Source of the DNA: Welwitschia mirabilis
Taxonomy: Eukaryota
Length of the DNA: 20,000 nt
Direction of reading: 5' to 3'
NCBI GenBank assembly: GCA_051453625.1
Contig: JBOZIK010000001.1
Span: 24,976,994-24,996,993 of the forward strand
The stretch's first letter is position 1. Each line of letters opens with the position of its first letter. The notes beneath the pieces were generated by a model. It made no database searches and had not been told where the DNA came from. It saw only the letters and a list, made by a program, of their open reading frames with translations. Shown piece by piece: positions 1,273-20,000 of this stretch. The position numbers and the translations under genes are program-made.

Positions 1273-2630
1273 ATTAGCCAATTTTAGTTACCTTAGCTAT
1301 ACATCCCACTTAGGGGAAATTATGATGTGATGTTAATGATCTACTTATAACTTAGAATCAGTAAATTTTAAGTTTTCTTTATACTTACGCATCCTTATTA
1401 ATTTAACAACAAAATCTAAGTAGACCCTTCCATTGTGCCTCTGGGATTCATCCAATACACTCTTACTTATCAAGGCATATACAAGAATCTAGACCTCGGG
1501 ATGCCTAGGGTGTTTCTACTTAATAGAGGCATGAATCTCTATATGATCTAAGCTATATAGTTATGGTAGTTAAAAATACATAATAGGCTCAAAAGATAAC
1601 ATACATGACACAGATCGATGCCTATGTAAGGATTTCTATGCTTGTCACTAACTAAGATTTATTACTGATTAAAACATTAATTGTTTAAGAGTAAATGTGA
1701 TACCCTTTATTTCCTTATTCTAAATTAGCACTATATCCCTTCCCCCTCTTTTTCTATTTCTTCCTTTTTTAATATTATTACCTAATAGACATAGAAAAAC
1801 CTAGAATAAAATTTTATGTATTTATGTATTAGCATTTTTATATTCTAAGAAAAATAAATCATGTTAAGATTATATATTTACCTATAATTAATTTCTAGAT
1901 TATTTTGGTTTATAAACAATAGCGATATCATAAGTTTGTGCTATCCATTTATTCCTAGTTTTTCATCATATAAAAGATATCTTATAAATAGTTGAGGAAA
2001 TGTAAACTTGTTATAAACATATATAGATAAGTTTAATAATAATACCTAACTAATATAATAGGAGGTTGTAACTCTAATTAATGATATTCCAACTTGATAT
2101 CTGATCATTATCTAGATGTGATCTGGTTTTACTTTAAGTTCTAAATTATACAAATGTGGTTTAACTTAATTTTATAGGCTTTCAATTTAGTTTAATATAT
2201 ACCCCTAATATATGTGATAGGGAGTACATGATATGGATGCATGCTTACAAATGACCCCCCCTTCTTTGAAGCATCTTTGGATGATGTAACATGATACATC
2301 GATGCTAAGGACTTGAGATATTAAGTTGGACTAAGTTCATACATGGATAGGATAGGAGAGTAGTGATCAAATCCACTTCTATAATGCAATCCACCTTGGT
2401 GATGAAATTCAAGTGTGGGGATGAACATTATTAAAATATCTTGATTTAGTCGTGTTCAATAAATACACCATACAAATGCATGCATACAATTCTAACTAAT
2501 GTGGATATTTAATAGATTATTTATCTATTTATAATAATTTTAATCATCAATAGGTTTATTTTATAAAAACAACCATAAAAGAAAACAAGAATATAAGAAC
2601 ATCTTAATATTCAAGATTATAATAATGAAA

Positions 2631-2694
2631 ATCTAGATAAAGGAAATATTGTTTTTCTTTTCTATCTAGATAAAGGAAATATCATTTTCTTTTT
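2631..2694. repeat. Two-copy 33-bp tandem duplication
   Basis: ATCTAGATAAAGGAAATAT is identical at 2631-2649 and 2664-2682, each followed by a similar T/C-rich tail. Confidence 0.8.
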
Positions 2695-5044
2695 TATTTG
2701 AATAATAATAAAAATATTTAAACTATATCAAATCACATCTTAATAATGTATGTAAAGAAACTAAAACATACCTAGAGATATGCCAATCCTAGAAACATTC
2801 TTCCATGATCATATGACAATCTCATGAATTGGTGAAAAGAATGTTAACAAAAGATTATAGCTCAATAATAATGGTTAAGATATAAATATTTATCCAAAAT
2901 TCACATGGATATATTATAAGTCAATAAAAAAAGTGATAATCCAAATACTATTTATATTACTTAAAATACAAAGGTAAAAACTCTTACAAGCATATACATT
3001 CAAAGTAAGATAAAGGAAAAAGGTAAAAGAGGTATTTAATAATTAATTAATTATGAAGCAAAAAATAAATTGTAGTAGTTTTTCAGAGAATAGACACATA
3101 ATAAGATTTTTCAAATCTAACTTAAACTATCTTGGAATTCTAACAATATTATTTATAAGGTTATCATTTAAGGTTAAAAACTATCAAATTTTCTAAAATT
3201 ATAGTCTTACTACACAATACTAAAATGATTAAAACATTTAAAATACTTTGAGTTTTTAAATGATTCAAGATGTTTTGAAAAGCTTATTTAATTTCTTACA
3301 ATTTAGTATGCTAAAGTTTATAGATATTGTAACCGTTAGTTATAAAAACATAAATTACTTGCTTAATATTTTTTGTATCTATTTTCTAACATATTTTAAT
3401 AAATAAATTTTTTTAAAAGTAATTTCCTATCATAAAAATTAATTATTTTTACATCATGTTCATAGAATTATCCTATACATTAAAAAAGAATTCAATAATT
3501 TATAGCTACTAATTATTAAGCTATGGTGTTTTTATCCTATGACTCTATTTTGGAAATTTAACTTTANNNNNNNNNNNNNNNNNNNNNNNNNNNNNNNNNN
3601 NNNNNNNNNNNNNNNNNNNNNNNNNNNNNNNNNNNNNNNNNNNNNNNNNNNNNNNNNNNNNNNNNNNNNNNNNNNNNNNNNNNNNNNNNNNNNNNNNNNN
3701 NNNNNNNNNNNNNNNNNNNNNNNNNNNNNNNNNNNNNNNNNNNNNNNNNNNNNNNNNNNNNNNNNNNNNNNNNNNNNNNNNNNNNNNNNNNNNNNTCCTA
3801 ATAAGATTTAGCTAATGTATAATAGATAAGAATATAATATTAAAATAAACACGTTTATCTAAAGTTCTTTTTTTTAGTAGTAAAACCCCTAGTCACATGG
3901 CCATAATCATCTATGAGTAACCTTCATTAACAACCACAAGAGATCCCTTATATCTCCCTGATATCTTGGTAAGTACTAATGGGAGGAAATAATGTTTTAT
4001 GACATCTTTATATACAAACTATAAATGATTTCCTAATGCAATATCACATCATTCCACTAGAATCTTATTTAGAGATCATAGAAATAATAAGGTAAATCTC
4101 TTACTTGGGAAGATTAGTAAGTCTTTGATAGTTAAATATTGATGAAGATCTAAGATCAAGAGTTTCTTAGATCCAAGCTTTTAAGATTCAAGCACAAGAA
4201 GTAGTAGAATTAAAGAAAGAGAGAGGCAAAAAGGAATGCACTTATATCAAAGAAATGAAAAATGGAAAGTATCTTCTTTTACAAGAGATGAAAGGATCTC
4301 AATATGTTAATAAATGAAGGCACATAGCTCAAGATCACAAGATCACATGATTTAACATTGGTAACTGGGGTGAGTAATAAATAACATTGGAGTACAAAAA
4401 GAGATTATATATATGACTCATGCACCTAAATAGGATGAGTAATATTCTTGCTTTAATTAGCAATATTAATTACATGCATCATTTCTTCATGCTAGTTGCT
4501 TTTTAATCCTNNNNNNNNNNNNNNNNNNNNNNNNNNNNNNNNNNNNNNNNNNNNNNNNNNNNNNNNNNNNNNNNNNNNNNNNNNNNNNTGGCATAATGAG
4601 ACAAACTCTTCAAGTCCAATAAATAAAACAATGAGTGTATTATGAAACAAATTCCCTTACACATCTCAAGAACATAAAAGTTATGATAGAGTAAATCTAC
4701 TCATTTATCATTTTTGGTGCTAGGTAAGAGTGCATGTACTTGTTCAAATGCTTATTAATTTCAAAATGCATAAAATCTATTAATCACATAACACAAGGGT
4801 AAAAATGTTTATTCATAATATAGTATACCTATCACATTTACTAAGAATTTAAATGAGTAAATAAGATGAAAAATATTATTATGTCCTCTTGAAATTTCAA
4901 CTTTATTAGTTTTATTATGTGATTTTAATTTCTCACATAATGGAATTATCTAATTTAAATGTTTGGATAGCTTTTCTTATAAAAACCTTTTAATATAGCT
5001 TTTATCATTTTCATGGTAAATTATGAAAATTACAAACTAAGGTT

Positions 5045-5360
5045 CACTACAAGAAATATGGGATTTTAAGGTGTTTCTAAAAGCTCTTAAAAAATGTCTT
5101 AAAAGCTTTTAAGGTGTTTCTTCATAAAATGCCTTAAAAAAATTTGCCTTAAAAGCCTGCATGCTTTTAAGATGTTTCTAAGGCATTTTTTTAAAAAAAC
5201 GCCTCAAAACATTTTGAGGATTTTTTTTTTTTGAAAGAAATACCTCAAAAGCCTTTTGAGGTATTTTTTTGAAGAAACATCTCAAAAGACATTTGANNNN
5301 NNNNNNNNNNNNNNNNNNNNNNNNNNNNNNNNNNNNNNTTTACAAAATAAACACCTCAAC
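5045..5360. repeat. Left CACTA TIR plus subterminal repeat array (consensus approx. AAAYRCCTYAAAA, both orientations)
   Basis: About a dozen copies in alternating orientation, e.g. ttttaaggtgttt, aaatgtcttaaaa, aaatgccttaaaa, aaacgcctcaaaa, ttttgaggtattt, aaacatctcaaaa. They follow directly on CACTACAAGAAA. This is the usual layout of TnpA-binding subterminal repeats. Confidence 0.88.
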
Positions 5361-8300
5361 GGTATAACCTAGGGGAAAAAATTACCACATAGAATCACTT
5401 TTTCTAGTTAGTTTAAAAGCCAATTGATAGTGTTATATTTTAGCAGTTGTTTATTGCTTAGACACAAAGAAAAAAGAGAATCATAGAATGGTCTTTGTAA
5501 TGCAAACAGGTTTTTAATGCAATCAAAAACCTTGTTTCTCTCACTACTTATAATGGAATTATGTATAGAGAACCATTATAGATGAAAGCTTCAGGATTAA
5601 ATTTCTCTCTGATTATCTCCTTCATTACATTTGTGCCAAACATGATAGAACTAGTTTTAAGAAGGTATTTTCTAGAAACACAGAGGCCCTAGAATCTGGG
5701 TGTAGATATTAAATCTTTTAATAACTTAAAACATATCAACTAATCAAAAAAAAAACTACAACTTGCAAAATTTAAGAACAATTAATAAGTTACTATATTT
5801 GTTACTAAATAGATTATTAAAGTAATGATTGAGAGAAACCAAATATCAAATTAAATTANNNNNNNNNNNNNNNNNNNNNNNNNNNNNNNNNNNNNNNNNN
5901 NNNNNNNNNNNNNNNNNNNNNNNNNNNNNNNNNNNNNNNNNNNNNNNNNNNNNNNNNNNNNNNNNNNNNNNNNNNNNNNNNNNNNNNNNNNNNNNNNNNN
6001 NNNNNNNNNNNNNNNNNNNNNNNNNNNNNNNNNNNNNNNNNNNNNNNNNNNNNNNNNNNNNNNNNNNNNNNNNNNNNNNNNNNNNNNNNNNNNNNNNNNN
6101 NNNNNNNNNNNNNNNNNNNNNNNNNNNNNNNNNNNNNNNNNNNNNNNNNNNNNNNNNNNNNNNNNNNNNNNNNNNNNNNNNNNNNNNNNNNNNNNNNNNN
6201 NNNNNNNNNNNNNNNNNNNNNNNNNNNNNTGATTTTACATAATAAATATAAGGTTTAGTAATAATCATCAAATAAAACATATCAAATTTCTGCTACAATT
6301 ATTCTAAGAGGCAAATAAAAAATTTAGAAAGAAACATACTTAAAACTTTCTAAAAAGACTTTAACTACAACTGCTTCCCATTTGAATGACACCCATGATA
6401 ACCTCATTCAAATTCACCTCTCCCCACTTCATTTAAAAAATTTATTTATTTCTTCTTTCATTATCCTCTTCTTCCCATCATTTACCTATTAAAATATAGT
6501 AAATCTAATGCCTCAGCTTCCCACTAGTTAGGCACCTATTAAGACACATCACAGTATTTCTATAAATAAAGCCTCTTAATACCCATAGTTCTCTATAATC
6601 CATTAAGCTCTTTTAAATGTAAAAAGCTAAGTTTCTTTATTTAACAGATTATGAAACATTGTATTATAAAATTCTTAAAGGTATTTAGATTAGAAGTATT
6701 ATTATTATTATAAAGAGCCATGGAATACTGCGTGTTTAAGAAGTTAATGAAGGTAAACCTCCAACAGTTTAAATAATAGTTATTAAACCAGATGATTCCA
6801 CTAAATTATCATTACTTCAAATGCAAATTAAAGTCATGTTGGAGTTTATAAGTGTAATGCATCATCACATTGATAAAATAGTAAAGGAGAGATCAGGCTA
6901 GAATGGAAACCTCAGATGTGTAATAAAAGATCATACTATGGTTTTTGCAGCTTAGAAATTATAGGTCCACCATGAAAACAAGGCCTTTAAAGTCTTTCTA
7001 GCCACCTGCATGCATTATGAATATTCCTTGCTAGTTTTAGTTTCCTTGTATTTTCACAAGCCATCCATAACTTATATTACTTCTAAACTTTTCAAATGAA
7101 AAGAGCTCAAATGCTTAATAAAGCAAAATAAAATGATAGGGCTTTAGTGGAGGTGGACCACTAATTTCTTCTAATTTTGAATAGCATTTCTATTAATGTC
7201 TTCTTTGCCAAAACTCTAAGGCATTACTTTTAGTGGTTCTTTAAAGCTTAATTTGTCTTATCTATTTTTTAAAATGAAAAATTAGAAATGAAGGCTTTTA
7301 GAGCTTAGCTTTCATTTTCCTTAGCTTAGCTTAGATTTCATTTCTCTCTTATTATGTTTTTTATTTCAATTTGCTTGTCTTATCAGAAATATCCTTAATA
7401 ACATAATCAAAAACTAGCAAAAACGATTCTTAAAAAAGATATTAGGGAAAACATTTCTAAAATAAAATTATAAATAAGTGTAAAAGAAGAGATGATGGTA
7501 AAAAATATCAGCTAGAAAGACTTTCAAACTGAATTTTTGTGATACAAAAATAGCTATTCAATAAGCAAGACATTGTTCTAGTTTGTGTTTTCCCACAAGG
7601 TAGAAGGAAAAATGAAGGATGTTCAAAGATAAGCAGCTTACTCTATGACTGTCTATTCCAAACTAAAACANNNNNNNNNNNNNNNNNNNNNNNNNNNNNN
7701 NNNNNNNNNNNNNNNNNNNNNNNNNNNNNNNNNNNNNNNNNNNNNNNNNNNNNNNNNNNNNNNNNNNNNNTTAATATTATTTTTGTGTAAAAAATCTTTT
7801 TTGGCTTCTGGATAAGTCTTTGAACAAAGTTATTTGTAAATTATTACCAAAACATGCATAGGTTAAGTCTTGTGCTTTTTGGCCAAGAATTCTTTAAACT
7901 GTTTTAACCAACTACATAAATTCAGAGTATTTGAGAATTGAAAATAATTCACATATTTTCATTAACTTGGGAAAATGATTCTTTTACCTTAATCAAAGTT
8001 ATATAACAAATGTAGGATTATATTAATAACTGCAACTCTTTAATAAAAGAAAAACATGGGAAAGAAAAAACTTGTGGAACCCTAGAAACAATTGTGATAA
8101 TGGCTGTAATAGTTGAATCAATTAAACAAAGTTGCTCAATGGGTTCTGGAGCATTAGAGAATGTAAGAGTTGTGTTCAGGCTTATTCTATTTCCCTCTAG
8201 GATTTCTCGTGTGTTACTTTTTGTTATAAAATACTCATAATTATTTTTTAACATTAAATAAATATAACACTAATTGTTGAAATTGAATAAAACTTGCCTC

Positions 8301-10797
8301 AACTCCAAAGACACGTACTAGGAGGCCAGGGATAAAGAAGCTGAGGAATACTTCAATGGAGGCTTTATTTCTTCCTAAGAAAGCCCTTGCCATGTGGTAG
8401 CATTTTAGATAGCTATCTCTTTTGATTACTCTTACTAAAGTATCTATAGCCCAAAGCCATTCCCCCATCCACCACCTAAGCCATTGGTGTTCAAGTCTTT
8501 TAGTTCCTACAAATCCAAACTAAATTAATAAAACATTAACCTATATTTAGAGAATTTAATGAGAGAAGGATGTGGTATAGAAATAAAATTACTTATAAAA
8601 AGATAGGAGGAGACCTTATATTGATTGAAACCAGTGCCTTGATTCTTGGATTACTAAGTACATGGGTGTGCATCTTGCTCTTCTGGTTGACATCTTCTAC
8701 TTCACCTAGAAAATAAAACAAGAAAATTCTTTCAAAATTTACCCACTAAAACCAAAATTTCTTTAAATCGGTTATAACAAGTTAGGGTTTTGGCTTTTAT
8801 AGCCCCACCTTTACATTAGTAGGTGGTCATAGTTTTTTTTATTGCTATCGAATACCTTGAATTTGATGTCCATGTAATTTTTACTTAAGAAACCTAAATA
8901 TAAACCTTAGATTCTAAACCATATCTATTGATGATCAAGAAAGTATGAAAATTTATGAAGTATTAGTCAAAGAAGCCAGATAAAAGGCACTACTTGAAGC
9001 TAAGCAAAAGGTAATTATGAAGCCAATAATTAAACATGGCCTACTTTGAAGATTGATGGTTCAAAGATGGATGGTTGGAAGTCACATTTTAGTAAATGAT
9101 GTAAGATAAAACCAAGGATAGCTTGACAACCTAATGAGCTTGCCAACACCTTATTAAGAAATGATGTGGTATATCTTGAAAAAATTAAACTAATTACTAG
9201 ATATAATAATTTTTTACATTATAAAATCCTATAAAATTAAAAGTGTTAACATGATAGATAATACTGCATTAATGTACTAAAACATATACTCCACTATTAG
9301 TAGTTGTTGTCTGTATTAAAGAATAATATGCCCATGAATATGAGACAAGTTAGTAACCATTCGGATATTAAAAAAAATAAGTTGCAGTGTTTAATTGAAA
9401 TGAAAATTTTGTTTTCTCAAAGATCCTGGTTCTCACTTAAAAAGGGCAATCAAAATGCTATGCGACATAATAAACTTGGAATGGAAAGATATGTTGCTAC
9501 AGCATACATAGAATACTTACGATGGAAATCTTGATTCTAAGACAAAGAAAAAAAATTTAGTTAAGAAATTTATAGCACTCTTTCTACTAGGAATAATGGA
9601 AATTTATTCTATATCCTAATCCCCTCTGAAACTAAAGATAGAATGATGTCCTAGCATATGCATCATGTAACTTACTAAGAATACAGATAGGTGAAAGTAA
9701 TCACTTGATATGTAATCTCAAATGTGAAATTCTAACCCTCAATCTCCATCTCCATCTCCACTAGAAACACCTTTCTTTCTTGGACTTTACTATTGCTCTT
9801 TAGGACTGCACTTGCTTATCTTTAAAGATAGTGTCTAGGATTATTCTAGATGTGTAGAAGTTATTTAATATCCTCATATAGAGTTTTATTCCCATCCTAT
9901 ATGTTTAGCCTTAATAAATGAACAAGTTGTAATTTCCTATTTCTCACAATGTCATATCAGCTACTTTACTAATTTTTACAATCCAGCAACTAGTATGGTA
10001 GTAGTATCATTACAAATAAAATAGAGGGAAAAAATTGAGTTATAGAGTATTTGATAATTGATACTGACTTATGAGTTAGTAAAGTAGACTCACATGAAAG
10101 TCATACTCCATGTATATCTTTTGTCTTGTAAAGAGGCAAAGAGGGATAGAAACACATCTTAAAAGCTTCTCCTCTTCTAGAAGTCTTCCTTCACATTCAT
10201 AGGACTTTGATAAGTCCTATTCTTATTATGTATTTAAAAAGGAAAACAGATTAGGGAAAAATAAATAGTGCCATCCTAGTAAACCCTTAAAAATGCAAAG
10301 ACAGGAAAAGGACTATTTGGAAGTAATAAAAGTTAAAAATTTTACATTCCATCCAAACAGGGATGTAGGATGGAGAGGAAGCAAAGACTAAGAACTAGAG
10401 GGGAAGGAAACTATGAAGAGTTAACTTATTTCATTACCTATCTAGAAAAGTATTTAAATTTAAAAGAGAATTTTAAGAATAAAAACACAAAATTTAAATA
10501 CTAGATGAAGATAAATTAGATTATTTTGTGGAGATCACAAAAGGTATCACAAAGAAGTAATTAAAATGGTTGATGTGCTATAAAGGCTATTTTATATATT
10601 TGTTTTCTTGATAGAGCTTTATCCAAGTAACAACTTCATATTAGTAGGAAATTGCTTCTTGAATATAGACACACTATAGCCTTTGACCCTTTTCTCATGT
10701 TGCATATAAGTACACCTATTATTGGAATTAAAATGGAGTGAAAGGAAAACCAAGGATAGAATTATCAAAATGCACTACAAGATGTCTAAGGATATAT

Positions 10798-10998
10798 TTT
10801 GGTAACTTCAAATTGATCATAAAGTATTATAAAATTCCCTTTTAAGATAATAAGCTCCTCCATCATTGTTATTTTTTTCTATAACAAAGTAATGGTCTTT
10901 GCATTAATAGTTGCATTTATCTAAAGTTTGTTGTTATATTATTATAAGTTAGTATTATATTCTTGTAATCTTCTATTGATATCTTGTAATGAATCCAC
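10798..10998 (-). pseudogene. Kinesin-14 fragment exon 5 (last recognisable exon)
   Basis: CTTAG| acceptor. 201 bp encoding VDSLQDINRRLQEYNTNL**YNNKL*INATINAKTITLL*KKITMMEELIILKGNFIILYDQFEVTK, with four stops. The donor appears decayed (AAA|ATATAT, probably from AAG|GTATAT). Confidence 0.9.
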
Positions 10999-11089
10999 CT
11001 AAGCACATACTAAGTAACACATTGTAATAAACAAAAGCAGCAAATAAATGAACCAGAAACAATTTTGAGCAAAGTCATCTCTAGCATAC

Positions 11090-11209
11090 CTGTTCATTAG
11101 CATTGGAGGCCTCTTGTTGAGTTTTGTTGGATTCTTCAGTCAACTAAGCTTCTACTCTCTCTATAGATTATTGTGCATTTCTTTCTTTCTATAATTCTTG
11201 ACTACATTC
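11090..11209 (-). pseudogene. Kinesin-14 fragment exon 4
   Basis: TTTTAG| acceptor and CAG|GTATGC donor. 120 bp encoding ECSQEL*KERNAQ*SIERVEA*LTEESNKTQQEASNANEQ, with three stops. Confidence 0.85.
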
Positions 11210-12738
11210 CTAAAATAACATTAAAAAAACCATGTTAGATGTAGGTGAAAAGTCACATGTACCACTGGCTATAATTAAGAATTAAAAACCAACTTGATGG
11301 AAGTTATACATATTAACAACCAAATTAGATATCAAAAAATATGCTAGGGAACTTTTTGTGAAGATATAAGCAAACTTTATTTATGCCATGGACACCATAA
11401 ATCAATCATGACATGACTTCTTTAAGTAAGCCACTAGCTAAACTATGACAATCAACATTGAAAAAATCATTCAGATTCCTAAGGAAAATAATCTCAAATA
11501 TTTGTATTATAATGAAAATATGTATCATTCAAGTTGTTTGTTTATAAATAAATATATGTTGTAACATGTCAAGCTTGAATAGAATGGTTATTTGTAAAAA
11601 TCTTAAAACAATTATATTATTCAGCTTTACATAAATACTCTGTGGCATCTAAAAAGACATTGAATGGTTCATAGGTGTTTGCTGATGTGTTTGTTTATAA
11701 TGATAATTATATTTCATGCATATCAATGTTCATTTGTATTATTGAATTAATTATGCCATTATCCAAATAACTTCCTTTCTTTTATGACATTTTCTAACTA
11801 GACTAAATGCAACATGTTTTAGAATTTTGCCTTGGATGGTAATAACTATATTACTTAACAAATATTAATATCAATGTAATGCTAATGACAATTTTAATTA
11901 TGAGGATAAATACATGACATAATGGTTTTATACTCTTTTAAATTAATGAACTAATTCTGGGCTTGTCCATTGCTAAGTGTTATGTACCATTTCCCTATTA
12001 TGTCTTTGTAATGTTACTTTCATAGTATGACCTCTCTTTCTCTCTTATTACCCATATCTGTGTGATAAACTACATAATAGTTTATTTTCACTATAAAAAT
12101 CCAAGAGAAGGTGGGGCATTTGATTTGGGCACTTACATACTAGTAAGCATGCATAAAGAATATTATAAAATAAAAATGTTCTATGTTGATTATTGCTTAA
12201 TAAATAATCACAAGAACCTTGAGTTCTTGCAATTGCCAAGTCATTCAGTCACTAGAATAATTGGCTTAGTAAGAAGAAGGTGGGAATGCCTAATAAGTGT
12301 GAACCAATACAAGCATGCAAGGGATACATTTAGGACTAGTCTATGAATTCTATTGATAGATATCCATTAGAGTCTTTGTAATGATAATTGTTTGCACCAC
12401 ATTGCACAATCATACATCCATATTACATTGTACTACAAGATGCATTTTTCAATTTCATAGACATCACATATTGCTTCTTTCCTTTGCATAGAAAAAGATA
12501 ATTTACTAGGAAAGAATTCAATATAAGTGTTACTTAGATATGTAAATTTCAGGCATTAGTTTTGAGATTATTTTATTATGGAATTCGTAGCTTTGCCTTT
12601 TTCAAGTAATTTATATCCACTTTTTACCAATGCACTTGTGATTCCAATGCTAGTTTTAGTCTCCTTTTTCATGTGTTTAAGTTAAAAATAGGCTTTTTAT
12701 AAAACATGAAAAGCAAATAAAATATCTCAAAATCTAAC

Positions 12739-12848
12739 CTGCATATCTTCAACTACATTTGATAGCCTTTCTTGTAATGTTGAGTAATTATTTTTTAGCT
12801 CTAAGACTTCAGCATTAAACTTTTCTTTCTTTTGTTTCATGGTATCCT
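12739..12848 (-). pseudogene. Kinesin-14 fragment exon 3
   Basis: TTTAG| acceptor and CAG|GTTAGA donor. 110 bp, phase-compatible with exons 2 and 4. It encodes EDTMKQKKEKFNAEVLELKNNYSTLQERLSNVVEDMQ (coiled coil). Confidence 0.85.
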
Positions 12849-12936
12849 CTAAATTAAAAATAAAACCAGTCATTTAAAAGCCAAACAAGCCCCTCACAAA
12901 AAAAAAAAAAAACCAGAAAAAAAAAAAACTGAGGAC

Positions 12937-13123
12937 CTGCTTTAGTTTTTAATTTCTTTTCACTAGACAACTCTTTCTCTAAGAGCTTTTTAGCAGTAAC
13001 ATGACTTTTTGTCTATTTTTGAAAATACCATATACAAAGTTATAGCTTTTTGATATACTCTATCATTTTTTTCATAGTTTCTGTACTTAAAAAACCCACA
13101 TTTGTCTTGCAATGGTAGATTGT
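12937..13123 (-). pseudogene. Kinesin-14 fragment exon 2
   Basis: Acceptor TTCTAG| (the original acceptor may lie ~35-45 nt further in) and donor CAG|GTCCTC. It encodes MIEYIKKL*LCIWYFQK*TKSHVTAKKLLEKELSSEKK, with two stops. Confidence 0.85.
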
Positions 13124-13210
13124 CTAGAACATTTCAAATGGAAAGAAACAACAAATGAATGAATAAATAGTTTGATGTAAATCCTATTAATTAAAATTCT
13201 AAAAACAAAC

Positions 13211-13405
13211 CTTATAATCGAACTTGGTTTCTTCCTTGATATATTCTTTAGTAAATTCTAGTAATTCAAGCAATTGTTCATTTGAAATTCTATCCAAAGA
13301 AGGGCCAAGATCAGAGGAATCTTGAAGAGAAGGTAGGTTTTTATGGCTTTCGAAAGAAGAGGATAAAGAAAAATGAGTCCTATTATTCTTTCTAACTAAT
13401 GCCAT
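13211..13405 (-). pseudogene. Kinesin-14 fragment exon 1 (ATG to KFDYK)
   Basis: This is the ORF-track entry 13199..13405. It ends at the donor AAG|GTTTGT after 65 codons: MALVRKNNR...LEFTKEYIKEETKFDYK. Confidence 0.8.
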
Positions 13406-14919
13406 AACATAGATGATCCAAATTAACCACTTTCATTCCTAATCTTCATGCTTGACTTGACCTCATATTCCATTAATTAAAAAAAAAGCTTTAGTTTAAC
13501 TTTAACCACTTTTCAAAGTTGTTCAAAATATTATGAATGAATGATAATGCGCAAACCTATAATACTAGTTGAAAAACAAACTAAGATAATGCCTAACCAT
13601 TAGTGAATAGTGAGATGCATGCCTTCCAAAAGCGCACCCTAATCTACTTTGTCACGCACTTAGTAATCACATTAATAAAACCAAGATATAATGGNNNNNN
13701 NNNNNNNNNNNNNNNNNNNNNNNNNNNNNNNNNNNNNNNNNNNNNNNNNNNNNNNNNNNNNNNNNNNNNNNNNNNNNNNNNNNNNNNNNNNNNNNNNNNN
13801 NNNNNNNNNNNNNNNNNNNNNNNNNNNNNNNNNNNNNNNNNNNNNNNNNNNNNNNNNNNNNNNNNNNNNNNNNNNNNNNNNNNNNNNNNNNNNNNNNNNN
13901 NNNNNNNNNNNNNNNNNNNNNNNNNNNNNNNNNNNNNNNNNNNNNNNNNNNNNNNNNNNNNNNNNNNNNNNNNNNNNNNNNNNNNNNNNNNNNNNNNNNN
14001 NNNNNNNNNNNNNNNNNNNNNNNNNNNNNNNNNNNNNNNNNNNNNNNNNNNNNNNNNNNNNNNNNNNNNNNNNNNNNNNNNNNNNNNNNNNNNNNNNNNN
14101 NNNNNNNNNNNNNNNNNNNNNNNNNNNNNNNNNNNNNNNNNNNNNNNNNNNNNNNNNNNNNNNNNNNNNNNNNNNNNNNNNNNNNNNNNNNNNNNNNNNN
14201 NNNNNNNNNNNNNNNNNNNNNNNNNNNNNNNNNNNNNNNNNNNNNNNNNNNNNNNNNNNNNNNNNNNNNNNNNNNNNNNNNNNNNNNNNNNNNNNNNNNN
14301 NNNNNNNNNNNNNNNNNNNNNNNNNNNNNNNNNNNNNNNNNNNNNNNNNNNNNNNNNNNNNNNNNNNNNNNNNNNNNNNNNNNNNNNNNNNNNNNNNNNN
14401 NNNNNNNNNNNNNNNNNNNNNNNNNNNNNNNNNNNNNNNNNNNCTCCTAAAACATTAGAGAAAAAAATAATGATGCGGGAAATGAACTAATGTCTATGAA
14501 AGAAGGGGAAAAAAATCATTGTTAACCAAATGAAAATCATTTCCACACTTGATCCTCCCTTTTTTCTTCCTTTTCTATTCATTGAGAAAGTATCAAAGAG
14601 TAACCCACAGAAGAATAACGCCTTCATGAATCTCCATTTAACTTTAAAAAGCACTATATTTTTAAAGCTGTGGTACTTAGTGAAAATCTTTTATTTAAAG
14701 ATACCATTTGAAAGATTAGTGAAAGAATGAATTCATATAAGATGAGGAGAAAGGTGAAACCCTTGTAACAACCAAAGCATGAAATCAGATAAAAGGTCCA
14801 AACCACATATTGAAAAAAGGAAGGCACTGGGGCAGGAATTCTCAAACTTTTTTGCATTTTAGTAAAACAAAATGCATGATTCTCATCATTTTAGCATTAT
14901 TTTAGTGTTTTTTAAACCT

Positions 14920-15116
14920 ATATTTTAAGGTTTTTGTTTTTTAAATGCCTTAAAAAAATCATATACATGCCTTACTTTTAAGGTTTTTTTCATAAACACC
15001 TTAGAAATAATTGTAAAAAAACTTTTAAGGTGTTTATTTATAAAATTACCTTAAAAAGGTTATTATTTTTTAAGGTATTTTTTAAAATAAATTCTTTAAA
15101 AAGTCATATTGTTGTG
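14920..15116. repeat. Right CACTA subterminal repeat array and disrupted TIR
   Basis: Same motif family as the left end: ttttaaggttttt, aaatgccttaaaa, aaacaccttagaa, ttttaaggtgttt, attaccttaaaaa, ttttaaggtattt. It ends in aagtcatatt, matching the inner part of the left TIR. Confidence 0.8.
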
Positions 15117-16197
15117 CTATCAACTTAGGCATATTTAATAGGGTATTATGAGTGGTTTTGTAGATTAATAGATAAGTAAATGCTTGATTTCCATAATAAT
15201 GGAGAGCTAAAGTGAAAAGAGATAAAAACATGCAATCTCCATGATGATTTAAATAATTTTAAGCAATTCTAAATACTTTACATTTCTGAGACAACTTCCT
15301 ATAAAACATTAAGGCTAATGCACTAATTGAAGATTTGCCAAAGGCCATCGTCTACCTCATGTCTAGATGACTAAGAAAATTGTACCAAGAGGGATGTTGA
15401 CTGTAATCAACCTGGCAACTAATGTGGATTAATTATGAGATGGCATTATCTCCTCTATCATCTAGACAACTAGTCAAATAATACTATTATAATGTCTTCA
15501 CTGAAATTCACCTGACTTATTCCACATGTGTTTATTTCTTCTTGCAAGACTGTTACAGTTTTACTCGTAACTTTCTGTCTATTTTCTTGTGTACTCATGT
15601 ATCAATAAATAGTGATCTCATCCTTAACTCTTTCTTATCTTTGTTTGCACCTAAAATTCTTATGACAGGAGATTAAAGGGTTGGAGATCCATCCTTGTAG
15701 TTGTAGAAAGACATTATCCTTGGTGTTATGTAGTGTTTCCTCCATTAAGATGCAGCTAATTTGTAACATAAATGTGGTTCACAATTTTATATAAAGCATT
15801 TTCTTTTATAATTTCAATGCATATTTGTTCTGCCCCCTCATAGCGTATGTTGCTTTTAATCTAGTGATGGTTTATTTAGTATTATAGGTTATGATGGTAA
15901 CCTTTACTAACATTTTGTATGGTTAGTTTAGGTTAGGTGCATTATTATTTTGTATTCCTAGATTAGCTTTGCATGAGTGTGTTATATTTACTTTCATGCA
16001 TTGCAAGTTATTTCTATAGTTAGAGTACAAGTATTTCTTTGTAGAAATTAACTCTCTTATTTTCTAACTTGGTCTTCAATGGATTATGACATTCAGATCA
16101 CTCTCATTTATATTAGTATGTTGTGTTTATGAATTATATTTGTAATTAATAGGATTCTAATCAGGATGTAATGTTTTATAAATACACATTATGAAAT
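15110..16197 (+). repeat. 5' LTR (~1.09 kb) of the Athila-like element
   Basis: Starts TGTTGTG and ends a few nt before the PBS. Its last ~350 bp recur inverted at 19648-20000, and that homology stops at the inferred LTR end. The terminus of the inverted copy (TATTGCG) resembles the 5' start (TGTTGTG). Boundaries are good to a few nt. Confidence 0.7.
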
Positions 16198-16199
16198 AT

Positions 16200-16217
16200 T
16201 GGCATCATTACCAAAGA
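16200..16217 (+). promoter_or_regulatory. Decayed primer-binding site complementary to tRNA-Asp (Athila type)
   Basis: TGGCATCATTACCAAAGA versus canonical TGGCGCCGTTGCCGGGGA. All seven differences are G>A or C>T transitions, and it sits between the LTR end and gag. Confidence 0.75.
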
Positions 16218-16644
16218 AGGCTGCTTAAAGTTTGGATGCTTGCCTACAACAATGGTGTACTATTATCTACAGTAGCATATGTTTCTATTTTTTACATCTT
16301 CAATTTTCTATTTTTCAAATAAAAGTTTTTATTCTATTCTACAATAAAAAATTAGTTGTCCACTTCATCATGTAGAGGATGTGTAGTGATGATGGCCTCT
16401 GTGCTGTGATTTTTCTATTTCTGTTTCTGTTAAAAATTTTTAGGGTTTTTTTCATCATCCCTTCTATTATTTATATGACTCAGTTGGATGACTATCTGCT
16501 TTTAGACTTTTTTGTATTTATTAGTCTTTTGTTTTTATTTTCTACTTTTTCTTTTCTTTTTTGTGGTTTTTGTATTTCTTTCATCTAAACTATCGTCTAG
16601 ACGAGTGTAAGGATGATACTCTATGCATTTGAAATTAAGCATAT

Positions 16645-17874
16645 ATGGTAAAATCTAGTAAGAAAGAAAAATACTAGAGAGAGTGGTTGTTTATTGAAAA
16701 AAATATCCAAGAAGATTTGATAGGCCTAGAAACTGACTCAGGTAAACATAGCAAATGTACATAAGATTTAGAATTTCTTGCAATATCTACTTTCATTTCT
16801 GTAAAGTCTGATTTTACTAAAGAAAATGTTTTAGATGATTATTTAGATGAGAGTTTCTCTTTTTCAATCATGTTTACCTCATCCTAAATGCAAAAGCAAC
16901 CTACCTTACTAAATCCACCCCTTGTCATTGGAACTCCTACAATCACTCCTATTTATACCAATGTCTATGTCATCCTTAGAGATCTCATAGGAAATAAGAA
17001 ATGTGAAATCCAAACCCCATTTGACTTACCTCTTGGTGATAATATTGAACTATGAAACTTAAATGCATATCCTACTTTTAGTGGTGAACTCGATGAACAT
17101 CCCTTGTAATATATTATCAATATAAAACAATTAGTCCTTACTTCTAGAAATAGTAAAAAACACATAAGTGTAGAACCTACATGGTTATCTTTCCCATCAC
17201 TTTTAAAGATAAGGCTAAACTATGGCTAAGAACAATTCCCTACAAAAGCTTAAAATCTTAGAGTCAAGATATGGAAGCCTTTATCAAAGATTTATGACTG
17301 AAACCACCACCTAAAAATGTAAGAAAGAAATCATTAACTTCCAATAAATTCCTAATAAAGACTATGCCTCTGCCTATGAGAGATTCTTTGTTGCTTTACA
17401 TTCAAATCTTGTAGATGCCTTTTCATAAATAGAACTAGTAGACTATTTTTATAGTGGATTAAATAGACACATAAAGTAACTTGTAGATTTTTTATGTGGA
17501 GGTAACTTATTAAACCAAACCTTAGAAGACACTTAAAAAGTGCTAAAAAACTTAGTAGAAGTGAGTCAAACATGGCCTAAACCCTCATCTAGTGAAAACT
17601 AAATAGTAAGCCAAATCATTAAATATCTAAAAGAGGTAAAACATGTGAAAAATGAAATAAGAGATGAAAATGAGCCAAGTAGTGTCATAAATAACTTAAA
17701 TTAACCTTGGAAAAATACATCTAAATAATTCTAGATGCTAAGGTATCAACCAAGAAGAATGAAGTTGCAGCTTCTGCTTGTAATTTATGTGAGGATAGTT
17801 ATCATGTTACCAAAGAATGTCCTTTGCTTCCAACTTATAAAGAAAGAATTTATAAGGAAGTATGTGATTTCAAT
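16645..17874 (+). pseudogene. gag: Gag pseudogene, copy 1 (Retrotrans_gag-like, intact CX2CX4HX4C knuckle)
   Basis: Frame from ATG 16645 with stops and frameshifts, including YPTFSGELDEHP and FPSLLKDKAKLWLR. CNLCEDSYHVTKEC lies at 17779-17820. Truncated by the gap. Confidence 0.8.
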
Positions 17875-17974
17875 NNNNNNNNNNNNNNNNNNNNNNNNNN
17901 NNNNNNNNNNNNNNNNNNNNNNNNNNNNNNNNNNNNNNNNNNNNNNNNNNNNNNNNNNNNNNNNNNNNNNNNNN

Positions 17975-19640
17975 CTTGTTATTGAAATCCCTACAATAAC
18001 TCCTACTTGTACTAGTGCCCATGTTACCCTTAGAGATTTCATAGCAAATAAGAAACATGAAATCCAAACTTCATTTGATTTACTTCTTGGTAATGATGTT
18101 GAACTATGTAACCTAAATGCATATCCTACTTTTGGTGGTAAACCTGATGAAGATACCTTTCAATACATTATTAAGATAGATCAGGTGGTTCTCACTTCTA
18201 AAAGTTGTAAAAAATGCATAAGTGATAGAACTTACATGGTCATCTTCCCCATTACTTTAAAAGATAAAGAAAAATTATGGCTTAGAATGATTCCCCACAA
18301 AAGTTTCAAATTTTGAAGTCAAGTTTAGGAAGCCTTTATCAAGAGATTTAGAGTGAAACCACCATCCGAAAATGTAAAAAAGAAGTAATCAAATTCTAAT
18401 AAATTCCTAATGAAGACTATGTCTCTGCTTATGAGAGATTCTTTATTTCTTTACATTCAAATCTTATAGTTGCATTTTCATAGATAGAACTTATTGACTA
18501 CTGTTATAGTGGATTAAATAATCACATAAAATAACTTTTAGATTTTTCATATGGAGGTAATATATTAAACCAAACCTTATATGATGCTTGAAAAATGTTA
18601 AAAGACTTGATAGAAGTGAGTCAAACATGACCTAAACCCTCACCTAGAGAAAATCAAACAGTAGGACAAATCATTAAAGATCTAAAGGAGGTAAAACATA
18701 AGAAAAATAAAAGAAGAACTAAAAATAAACCAACTAATATCATAAAGGATTTTACTTCAATCTTAAAAAAATACATACAAATGATTCTTGATATTAAAAT
18801 AACAATCAAGAAGAGTGAATTTGTAGTTCCTACCTATGATTTATGTGAAGATAGTTATCATGTTACTAAAGAATGTCCTTTGCTTCCAACTTATAAAGAA
18901 AGAATTTATAAGGAAGTATGTGATTTCAATAAGAGGTCCTCAAATTACAATCAAAACCAAAATAAAAAACAAGTTTAAAGCCATAACAACTTTCAACTTA
19001 GGATGAGTGAACAACCCAACTTCAAAAATTATCAAATAAACCATTCTAACTTTCAACCTTTTCAGAAAACATTTAAGAATATGAACTTTTAATCTAACAA
19101 CTAAAACAACAAAGCAAGATCATCCAACTCCCAAAACCAAAGTGATCCTCTTAGAAATTTTATTGAAAAGTTGAGAAAATCATAAAAAAAGATAAACTTA
19201 AATATTAAAAAGACAAACACCAACATTAAAGACCTTGAGAGTATTTTACAATAAACTATGCTTGCTAACCAAAGACCACATGGATCTCTTGCCACTCAAT
19301 CTTTATCAAATCCAAATAAAGTTAGAAAGATTATAAGGTAGTGATAAGAAGTGGAAATGACATAACTCCTTCCACTCATGAGGCTTTAATATTATAAAGT
19401 AACAAAAATAATGAAGAAGAGGACATAGGAATCTTAAAAAACCATTGTTTCCTTTCTTATTAAGTAACAAAAAGAAAAACGCTTCTCATAAGAAACCTAC
19501 TACCGCATGGCTTGATAGGCTTAACACAAATCCTATTTTTAATGATCATTTAAAATCCTTAATGTAAAATGTGAGTGTTAAATTTCCGTTTTGGAAAATT
19601 TTGCAAGAAAAAACAAAGTATTTAAAGATATGGAAAGAAT
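17975..19640 (+). pseudogene. gag: Gag pseudogene, copy 2, continuing toward the protease region
   Basis: YPTFGGKPDEDTFQYI...FPITLKDKEKLWLRMIPHKSF...EAFIKRF. The knuckle is decayed to YDLCEDSYHVTKEC (18835-18876), followed by an N/Q-rich tract and LANQRPHGSLATQSLSNP (~19261-19315). Covers ORF-track pieces 17735..18316 and 18781..18978. Confidence 0.82.
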
Positions 19641-19647
19641 TGATTAT

Positions 19648-20000
19648 TATTGCGATGCATATTTATGCAACATTCACATCCTAATCTGAATCTTATTAAT
19701 CACAAATAATATGCACAAACACAACAAACTAGTATAGATGGGAGTGATCCGAATGTTATAATCTGTCGAAGACCAAAGTATGAAAATAAAAGAGTTACTT
19801 TCAAGAGAAGATTATGTAACCCTAACCTACTAAAATAAATTGTAATGCATGGAATTGAAATAAAACATACTTATGTAGAACTAATCTAGGAAAGGAAATA
19901 ATAATGCACTTAAACTAATTAAGCTCAACCTTGACAAAAGATGCCTTATAATCTATATCAGAAAAGAAGCTTGTCACCAAATCTTAGATAACATAAACTA
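19648..20000 (-). mobile_element. Inverted LTR (3' end) of a second, same-family Athila-like element nested in gag-pol; runs off the window
   Basis: Colinear with the reverse complement of ~15841-16197. Examples: gggagtgatccgaatgttataatctgtcgaagaccaa vs gagagtgatctgaatgtcataatccattgaagaccaa, and ctaatctaggaaaggaaataataatgcac vs ctaatctaggaatacaaaataataatgcac. Confidence 0.85.

Follow-up and report, generated by a model that had tools for sequence, protein, structure and literature searches.

A decayed kinesin-14 gene fragment with its introns between CACTA-type ends in Welwitschia mirabilis, and a second terminus at its break

How a piece of a kinesin gene came to lie between two CACTA-type transposon ends, and whether these ends ever belonged to a single element, are the questions raised by positions 5045 to 15116 of the window, by which we mean the whole stretch of 20,000 nucleotides that was analyzed. 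The original prediction was one CACTA transposon carrying a motor-less kinesin-14 gene fragment with its introns. Our analyses agree with this as far as the fragment is concerned. For the interval as a whole, the reading that we favor, at about even chances, is a Pack-CACTA-type capture in what would now be decayed, non-autonomous DNA of the En/Spm type, in which two parts are probably joined in tandem or as a composite.

The kinesin piece lies on the minus strand, which had not been stated before, and its five exons between 13405 and 10798 match residues 1–266 of P0001, a kinesin-14 of 777 residues, in tblastn, with 179 of 266 residues identical over the five exons. Exon 1 (13211–13405) begins with the ATG, covers residues 1–73 (42/73 identical) and has an 8-codon deletion; exon 2 (12937–13080, residues 74–121, 31/48 identical) contains two in-frame stops and has an acceptor whose phase does not fit exon 1; exon 3 (12739–12848, residues 122–158, 31/37 identical) has kept an open frame; exon 4 (11090–11209, residues 159–198, 30/40 identical) has three in-frame stops; and exon 5 (10798–10998, residues 199–266, 45/68 identical) has four in-frame stops and a one-codon deletion. 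The coiled-coil stretch in exon 5 is still readable at about 10968 as RLQEYNTNL, two stops, YNNKL and one further stop. Every intron has retained its GT..AG borders, and a 5' untranslated leader of the captured gene (13406–13694, minus strand), recognized by an RNA joint described below, precedes exon 1 and stops at a run of N. Used as a protein query with stops read as X, exon 5 recovered P0001 as the sole hit among five candidates (E 2.5e-15, 67% identity), and with exon 1 as the query among longer proteins, none of 42 candidates had an E as low as 0.01. P0001 is built like a kinesin-14, with an N-terminal tail, a coiled coil and a C-terminal motor, which Pfam places at residues 421–750 (PF00225), and the solved structures closest to it are those of Kar3, KIFC1 and Ncd. 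No such motor (PF00225) was found by Pfam in the six frames of the whole 20-kb window with stops read as X, and tblastn with P0001 beyond residue 266, which covered the 10.8 kb downstream, gave only chance-level matches with an E of 5 or more. Two of these, at 10681–10631 (E 6.5) and 273–235 (E 5.0), had hinted at motor exons and were dismissed as chance, as matches of equal weight occur on the other strand and Pfam found no motor. Judged by its sequence, the window copy is a fragment of a kinesin-14 gene, comprising the tail and part of the stalk, and not a working kinesin, and it is dead as a protein, with nine in-frame stops and the out-of-phase junction between exons 1 and 2. The original prediction had read five spliceable exons from the ATG to the RLQEYNT coiled coil, an origin from a kinesin-14 gene, a DNA-level capture with introns that is confined to the tail and stalk, and a dead copy, and on all these points our findings are in agreement with it.

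By this reading, an expressed kinesin-14 gene supplied the kinesin piece from its 5' end, at the DNA level and with leader, exons 1–5 and introns, and RNA reads give a view of this parent. Intron 4 is skipped by a joint at 10998|11090 (43 reads in run X14, 21 reads in run X17), and loose ends at 12738 and 12850 represent both borders of exon 3, with the loose letters at 12738 reading as parent exon 4. Introns 3 and 4 of the copy are thus placed where the parent reads splice. Another joint, 13454→13602, has six letters between its sides and is seen in 36 reads (X14) and 9 reads (X17); the skipped stretch 13455–13601 represents an intron of the leader or else sequence inserted into the window copy. 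At 10798, reads of the parent mRNA go on into sequence that the window does not share (15 reads in X17, agreement 1), and the copy therefore breaks off inside a parent exon. Less than 90% alike to the window are 837 of the 1024 placed reads in X14 and 325 of 411 in X17, and at most 10 and 4 of them, respectively, are at least 95% alike over the whole window. The RNA reads on the kinesin exons stem from a diverged, expressed parent gene and not from the window copy, for which we see no sign of transcription. The differences between RNA and window are skewed, as positions with A/T in the window and G/C in the read outnumber the reverse by 588:238 (X14) and 409:117 (X17); by the same comparison, differences in DNA contigs are symmetric (1345:1361, X1). 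The loose end provides 30 bases of parent exon 4; at all six sites where these differ from the window (6/6), the RNA has G/C and the window A/T, and one of the six differences turns CAG into TAG in the window copy. The kinesin piece has thus probably decayed after its capture by G/C-to-A/T transitions into a dead pseudogene.

What bounds the interval can be described in similar detail. The left CACTA terminus, CACTACAAGAAAT (5045–5057, plus strand), is read directly from the sequence and has 12 of 13 bases in common with the terminal repeat of maize En1 as listed in Table 2 of PMC3193017; the end at 5045 is a clean En/Spm-type terminus. Contigs of other copies of the left-flank repeat part from the window exactly at 5044|5045 (169 contigs from run X1, 210 from X5), and no comparable row of contig divergence is listed for the right side of the interval. 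The right terminus (15105–15116, minus strand) is degenerate: its reverse complement is CACAACAATATG and not CACTA, and the reverse complement of the right end reads CACAACAA, with seven of eight bases matching. An alignment of the left end's 60 outermost bases with the reverse complement of the right end begins 0–3 bases from both tips and scores 39; in 500 shuffles the score never exceeded 37, with the median at 24 and the 95th percentile at 32. A scan of the window for the TTTTAAGGYRTTT motif, with one mismatch allowed, returned matches on both strands within two end clusters and none elsewhere (16/16), nine in a left subterminal cluster (5064–5266, both orientations) and seven in a right one (14923–15080); 0.76 matches per window are expected by chance, and the top count in 200 shuffles was 4. 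The left cluster, in which hairpin-like inverted pairs are present, reaches the N stretch 5297–5338. When the window was compared with itself, nothing emerged but the repeats of the right flank and a match of 41 bases that links the two ends. The two ends are of one CACTA family and face inward. A 3-bp target-site duplication is absent for the 5045/15116 pairing (GTT at 5042–5044, CTA at 15117–15119) and also for a 10773/15116 pairing (ATG at 10770–10772, again CTA at 15117–15119), which at about 15% decay is weak evidence. The 30-base continuation of the left-flank repeat, as known from its other copies, was not found in the visible window, including the part after 15116; the best score was 23, and the maxima of 20 shuffles ranged from 23 to 30. 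As the repeat on the left is not taken up again on the right, the interval cannot be a simple insertion between intact flanks, and together with the missing target-site duplication this speaks against one clean 10-kb element. The matching ends of the original prediction thus hold up in family and orientation, and not as an intact pair.

A second exact terminus, overlooked in the original prediction, lies inside the interval. The 10-mer CACTACAAGA occurs in the window only at 5045 and 10773, both times on the plus strand; by chance, 0.03 occurrences are expected per window, and about 1e-4 at no more than 30 bases from any one point. At 10773 it is followed by a TCTAAGG motif, and this stub (10773–10797, plus strand, read directly from the sequence) points into the kinesin cargo, whose last codon is only 15 bases away. 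The unit that bears the cargo may thus run from 10773 to 15116, in which case 5045 would belong to a neighboring part of the same CACTA family. The interval would most likely consist of two parts in the same orientation: a part A from 5045 to roughly 9.3–9.9 kb, where the left terminus and its subterminal repeats are followed by a body of moderate repetition that includes the possible WS/DGAT-like fragment, and a part B (10773–15116), with a 25-base left-terminus stub, the kinesin cargo, the right subterminal repeats and the degenerate terminus. Part A is without a right end, and part B is without left subterminal repeats. A stub that abuts the cargo would fit aberrant excision or hybrid-element formation between neighboring direct insertions, and abortive gap repair would yield the same pattern. 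The model given for Pack-CACTA elements in PMC6379663 is of this kind, with hybrids arising from close direct insertions and aberrant excisions that leave one terminus each, and fused two-part elements and neighbors in the same orientation are on record in PMC8903248.

Copy number was viewed through summed contig depth, which is a rough guide only. The interior has a low depth of 13–300, and its limits coincide on either side with the bins that contain the 5045 and 15116 ends; beyond these bins, the flanks, which are nested high-copy repeats, reach 6,600–120,000. Within the interior, depth differs about tenfold between 5337–9338 and 9339–14674. The locus's own contig (two differences) covers 14444–15159 and ends 43 bases into the high-copy right flank. 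There is also a sister copy: in both DNA runs (X1, X5), contigs of about 84–86% identity bridge the junction of stub and kinesin, as seen by contig alignment for record 13 of X5 (9862–11173) and record 6 of X1 (10677–11593). In the available contigs this copy, about 84% identical, spans 9862–12124 of the window, its divergence is alike across exon, intron and non-genic parts, and in both runs (record 4 of X1, record 13 of X5) its similarity ends at 9862, where there is no terminus. With about 15% divergence from the sister copy, the structure is old.

Could the interval nevertheless be the single 10-kb Pack-CACTA element that was originally proposed, with everything between 5045 and 15116 as cargo and CACTACAAGA at 10773 by chance? 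The ends are of one family, inward-facing and aligned from their tips, the low-copy interior is bounded by both of them, and a transposase is absent. However, an exact terminus at the very break of the cargo is hardly expected by chance, a target-site duplication is lacking, the repeat of the left flank is not continued beyond 15116, the tenfold step in depth divides the interior, and the sister copy has its left limit at 9862 and not at 5045. We consider a single element unlikely for these reasons, and whether the whole interval ever moved as one unit is a matter of inference. Very improbable, in our view, is a nested arrangement in which a small kinesin-bearing CACTA element, running from 10773 to a point within the hidden stretch 13695–14443, sits inside an older element of 5045–15116. 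It would make use of the stub and of the 749 hidden bases just upstream of the kinesin leader, and contigs do break at the edge of this stretch (records 8 and 16), but the visible sequence gives no right end there, no subterminal motif is found in 13400–13694 or 14444–14922, and the sister copy has DNA of both sides of 10773.

No capture at all would have to be postulated if the kinesin piece were a resident or segmentally duplicated kinesin-14 paralogue, truncated and scrambled among transposons, with the CACTA ends as unrelated neighbors. This explanation is doubtful. A simple CACTA insertion in exon 5 would have put the TCTTGTAGTG orientation beside the 5' half of the gene, and the stub observed at 10773 points into the cargo instead; besides, no residue past 266 is present in the 10.8 kb downstream, and low-copy DNA bounded by inward-facing ends of a single family is not what unrelated neighbors would suggest. 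Yet the remaining gene could lie outside the window, the flanks are nested high-copy repeats, the missing target-site duplication and the degenerate right terminus would come as no surprise, and the sister copy could be a segmental duplicate, as its limit at 9862 fits no terminus. Capture, with two neighboring parts of one CACTA family, is the reading that we retain.

The interior was also searched for other cargo and for a transposase. A possible second gene fragment is an ORF at 8021–8269 (minus strand) with similarity to the WS/DGAT C-terminal domain (Pfam PF06974), a marginal call on sequence grounds, with 22.3 bits (E 1.4e-4) where 20.7 bits are required, and only 15.6 bits when scored within the long frame. 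Compared with longer proteins, none of 43 candidates was significant for this ORF, and a full HMMER scan against representatives gave five hits that were all read as compositional artefacts, three of which were checked (P0002, P0003, P0006) and are Fn3, SprB or other repeat proteins. The ORF 8244–8519, once suspected to be WS/DGAT-like, has no Pfam family, and ten more ORFs between 5411 and 10774 gave no family at E 0.1 or better. In line with the original prediction, Pfam detected no transposase in the six frames of the whole 20-kb window with stops read as X. Runs of N mask 1262 bases within the interval, the longest being the 749 bases at 13695–14443; this is too little for a CACTA transposase.

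Capture of gene fragments by CACTA elements is known from Arabidopsis, soybean, morning glory, rice and maize, as the accounts in PMC6379663, PMC8903248 and PMC1947982 relate, and the window thus adds an example and not a principle. According to the description by Catoni et al. (PMC6379663), the Pack-CACTA elements of Arabidopsis are, like the interval studied here, non-autonomous, with CACTACAA-type termini and host-gene DNA with exons and introns inside, and the origin model in the same article, in which neighboring direct insertions lose one terminus each, leads to a stub beside the cargo, as found here. In Arabidopsis the 3-bp target-site duplications are intact and movement was observed, whereas the interval, which is old, shows no duplication and has a degenerate right terminus. 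Soybean Tgm-Express1, as portrayed by Zabala and Vodkin (PMC1947982), is likewise a multi-kilobase CACTA element with several unrelated host fragments that have kept their exon/intron structure; its fragments are spliced into host transcripts, whereas for the window there are at most the 10 of 1024 (X14) and 4 of 411 (X17) reads mentioned above, and Tgm termini are CACTATTAGAAAA in Table 2 of PMC3193017, unlike the left terminus here. Rice Pack-MULEs and other Pack-TYPE elements follow the same logic of terminal inverted repeats around captured coding DNA, and fused two-part elements exist among them as well, but the overview in PMC8903248 assigns them to other superfamilies, in which the Mutator terminal repeats are long and the duplications measure 9 bp.

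Among motors, Kar3, Ncd and KIFC1 have the layout of P0001, whereas the window copy retains residues 1–266 only, without the motor and with many stops. The plant ATK1/ATK5 class and maize Kindr are kinesin-14 motors as well, and nothing links the window copy to meiotic drive. The headless, dimer-poisoning protein of the original prediction, or its alternative of an siRNA source, finds no support here, with exon RNA reads that are mostly less than 90% alike and come from the parent gene. It would be a long shot, and is speculation as far as a dominant-negative kinesin is concerned, that the sister of about 84% identity or another copy keeps an open frame and is transcribed, giving a motor-less tail and stalk that poisons the full-length kinesin-14, or small RNAs that tune the parent; if true, transposon capture would have produced a regulator of spindle assembly. 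The modest value of the locus lies in its anatomy, with a stub 15 bases from an exon-internal break and a second end of the same family and orientation 5.7 kb away. This stub-at-break pattern is predicted by the published hybrid-element model, although natural copies of such age have seldom been noted to show it, and on a less bold reading the stub may represent a natural fossil of the gene-capture route by tandem insertion and aberrant excision.

In this AT-rich, plant-like DNA, which is interrupted by seven N runs, the pieces that encode kinesin-like sequence are on the minus strand and include the stretch RLQEYNTNL-stop-stop-YNNKL-stop at about 10968. When exon 5, with its stops replaced by X, was compared with five candidate proteins, the sole match was P0001 (E 2.5e-15, 67% identity, 95% of the query), a 777-residue protein with a kinesin motor at 421-750 and a microtubule-binding domain at 398-563, whose closest solved relatives are the kinesin-14 motors Kar3, KIFC1 and Ncd. 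The kinesin-14 identity given in the original prediction therefore holds; the ATK1/KATA label and the Kindr comparison, likewise from the original prediction, are tentative. By tblastn against the window, residues 1-266 of P0001 fell onto five collinear minus-strand pieces, and exon borders were set from the splice motifs around them: exon 1 at 13405-13211 (42/73 residues identical, no in-frame stop), exon 2 at 13080-12937 (31/48, two stops), exon 3 at 12848-12739 (31/37, none), exon 4 at 11209-11090 (30/40, three) and exon 5 at 10998-10798 (45/68, four). All introns start with GT and end with AG. The sum is 179 of 266 identical residues and nine in-frame stops; moreover, exon 1 lacks eight codons, its 3' end is a complete codon, and neither AG upstream of exon 2 restores the frame. 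As anticipated, the copy is dead as protein.

Contigs of two DNA runs (X1 and X5, under different organism labels) and raw reads of two RNA runs (X14 and X17) were aligned to the whole window at a likeness of at least 82%. Most exon RNA reads are less than 90% alike to the window (837 of 1024 in X14, 325 of 411 in X17) and thus stem from a diverged expressed relative, not from this copy; reads at least 95% alike number only 10 and 4, respectively, anywhere in the window. The parent reads splice at 10998|11090, which is exactly intron 4 (43 X14 and 21 X17 reads), and also stop at either edge of exon 3, where the loose letters at 12738 are the beginning of parent exon 4. Together with the GT/AG borders, this bears out the proposed copying at the DNA level with introns kept. 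Past 10797, the parent reads translate to the next residues of P0001 (TSLQETLQKA) and the window becomes unrelated, so the copy breaks off within a parent exon; the leader was copied too, as reads extend upstream of the ATG, skipping 13455-13601. In the loose end of parent exon 4, 6 of 30 bases differ, all being G/C in the RNA and A/T in the window, and one turns CAG into TAG. Over the whole window, A/T facing a read G/C outnumbers the reverse by 588:238 (X14) and 409:117 (X17), and such differences are symmetric in the DNA contigs. This A/T-ward bias is the pattern expected of cytosine deamination in a silenced copy.

Six-frame Pfam scans of the entire window, reading stops as X, found neither a kinesin motor nor a transposase, and P0001 beyond residue 266 gave only tblastn matches of E >= 5, on both strands. 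N runs mask 1262 bases within 5045-15116 (the longest 749), which could harbor an exon or a terminus and would be too small for a CACTA transposase; the description as a motor-less fragment without transposase can be kept. Contigs enter or cross the N runs 4511-4588, 5297-5338, 7671-7770 and 13695-14443 (a loose end at 4510, a joint from 7668 to 7824, and contig records 8 and 16 reaching 10 and 28 bases into 14443), so real sequence exists there and is merely hidden or unassembled. The sole Pfam match was a weak WS/DGAT C-terminal domain in a minus-strand ORF at 8021-8269 (22.3 against a 20.7-bit cut-off, E 1.4e-4); RNA reads map to its bin, no true relative came out of two sequence searches, and the assignment is marginal. 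A possible third gene-derived fragment, without a family match, is 5600-5700, where reads of a diverged relative share one difference at 5680 (14 X14 and 18 X17 reads) and break off at 5700, an exon-like edge at which the loose letters of 17 reads are uniform (agreement 0.97).

The left end, from 5045, reads CACTACAAGAAAT and shares 12 of 13 bases with the maize En1 terminus (PMC3193017, Table 2); the right end, inward from 15116, reads CACAACAATATG and is degenerate. Copies of the motif TTTTAAGGYRTTT number 16 in the window (0.76 expected by chance), nine in 5064-5266, seven in 14923-15080 and none elsewhere. The terminal 60 bases on the left, aligned to the reverse-complemented right end, score 39 (maximum of 500 shuffles, 37), beginning 0-3 bases from both tips. 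The ends are thus related, and of the predicted matching CACTA ends the kinship stands, with a degenerate right end and no target-site duplication (GTT vs CTA). In each DNA run, 5140 is joined to 14955 on opposite strands by three contigs, as would follow from closely similar inverted subterminal repeats in other family members. Summed contig depth, a rough guide only to copy number, is 15,000-120,000 over 1335-5336, 85-300 over 5337-9338, 13-34 over 9339-14674 and 6,600-40,000 over 14675-20000 (about 5 for individual contigs of this locus); given these jumps, low-copy DNA is bounded on both sides by end-bearing bins. In 169 (X1) and 210 (X5) contigs of the left-flank repeat, the match ends exactly at 5044 and a common unlike sequence follows, so 5044|5045 is a real insertion boundary. 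The left flank (1335-5044) is itself a very high-copy repeat (depth 15,000-98,000) without a Pfam family, with RNA reads at a depth of about 8 over 2002-2668.

An internal CACTA terminus, CACTACAAGA, lies at 10773-10782 on the plus strand, 15 bases past the last kinesin codon, and a TCTAAGG motif comes after it. This 10-mer occurs only at 5045 and 10773, both on the plus strand (chance expectation 0.03 per window, about 1e-4 within 30 bases of a given point), and at 10773 it points into the cargo. Had a CACTA element simply inserted into exon 5 of a resident gene, the opposite end orientation would lie beside the gene's 5' half, so that simple reading is excluded. A sister copy, about 84-86% identical, is represented in both DNA runs by contigs that span the junction of stub and kinesin (X5 record 13, 9862-11173; X1 record 6, 10677-11593; more pieces to 12124), so the chimera was duplicated after its formation, and it evolves neutrally, since divergence is about equal in exon, intron and non-genic parts. 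X1 record 5 agrees with the window over 10148-10782 and departs from it beyond; at most a hint, this might be a copy with an ordinary family end after the 10-mer.

Capture of the kinesin DNA in association with CACTA elements, in some form, is what we consider probable; this estimate combines the two readings discussed next. We give about even odds to two parts, one from 5045 to about 9.3-9.9 kb and one, carrying the kinesin cargo, at 10773-15116. The hybrid-element model, as outlined in PMC6379663, involves neighboring direct insertions and aberrant excisions that each leave one terminus, and predicts a terminus stub adjoining captured DNA; fused two-part elements and same-orientation neighbors are reported in PMC8903248. 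At this locus, the stub beside the cargo could come from that route or equally from abortive gap repair in which the template was switched. A single 10-kb element, which the related outer ends favor and the internal stub disfavors, seems unlikely to us. A small kinesin-bearing CACTA starting at 10773, nested inside an older element, is less probable still and adds little to the overall estimate. We likewise think it unlikely that a resident or segmentally duplicated pseudogene lies between unrelated ends. That reading keeps some weight mainly because no duplication flanks the ends, the left-flank repeat does not resume at the right (its continuation after 5044 was found nowhere in the visible window), and the sister similarity stops in both DNA runs at 9862, which coincides with no terminus; the kinship of the two ends speaks against it.

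Pack-type CACTAs with exon-intron fragments of several genes are already established (PMC6379663, PMC8903248, PMC1947982), and the interval is a further example. A literature search combining CACTA, kinesin and gene fragment turned up nothing but an unrelated genome paper. Of all the details, only the stub at the breakpoint merits a specialist's look.

In the right flank, some 1 kb is duplicated in tandem (16921-17874 and 17975-18930, 82.5% identical over 957 bases, with a 100-N gap between), both copies having ORFs with a CEDSYHVTKECP-like stretch; it matches no Pfam family and, given the very high contig depth, probably belongs to a high-copy retroelement. Two inverted stretches of about 260 bases (15928-16184 and 19660-19918, 78.6% identical) may represent the ends of another element. 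About 40 X14 reads match the 47-base piece 16110-16156 alone, with uniform unlike sequence on each side (agreement 0.99-1 for the loose ends, which begin at 16109 and 16156).
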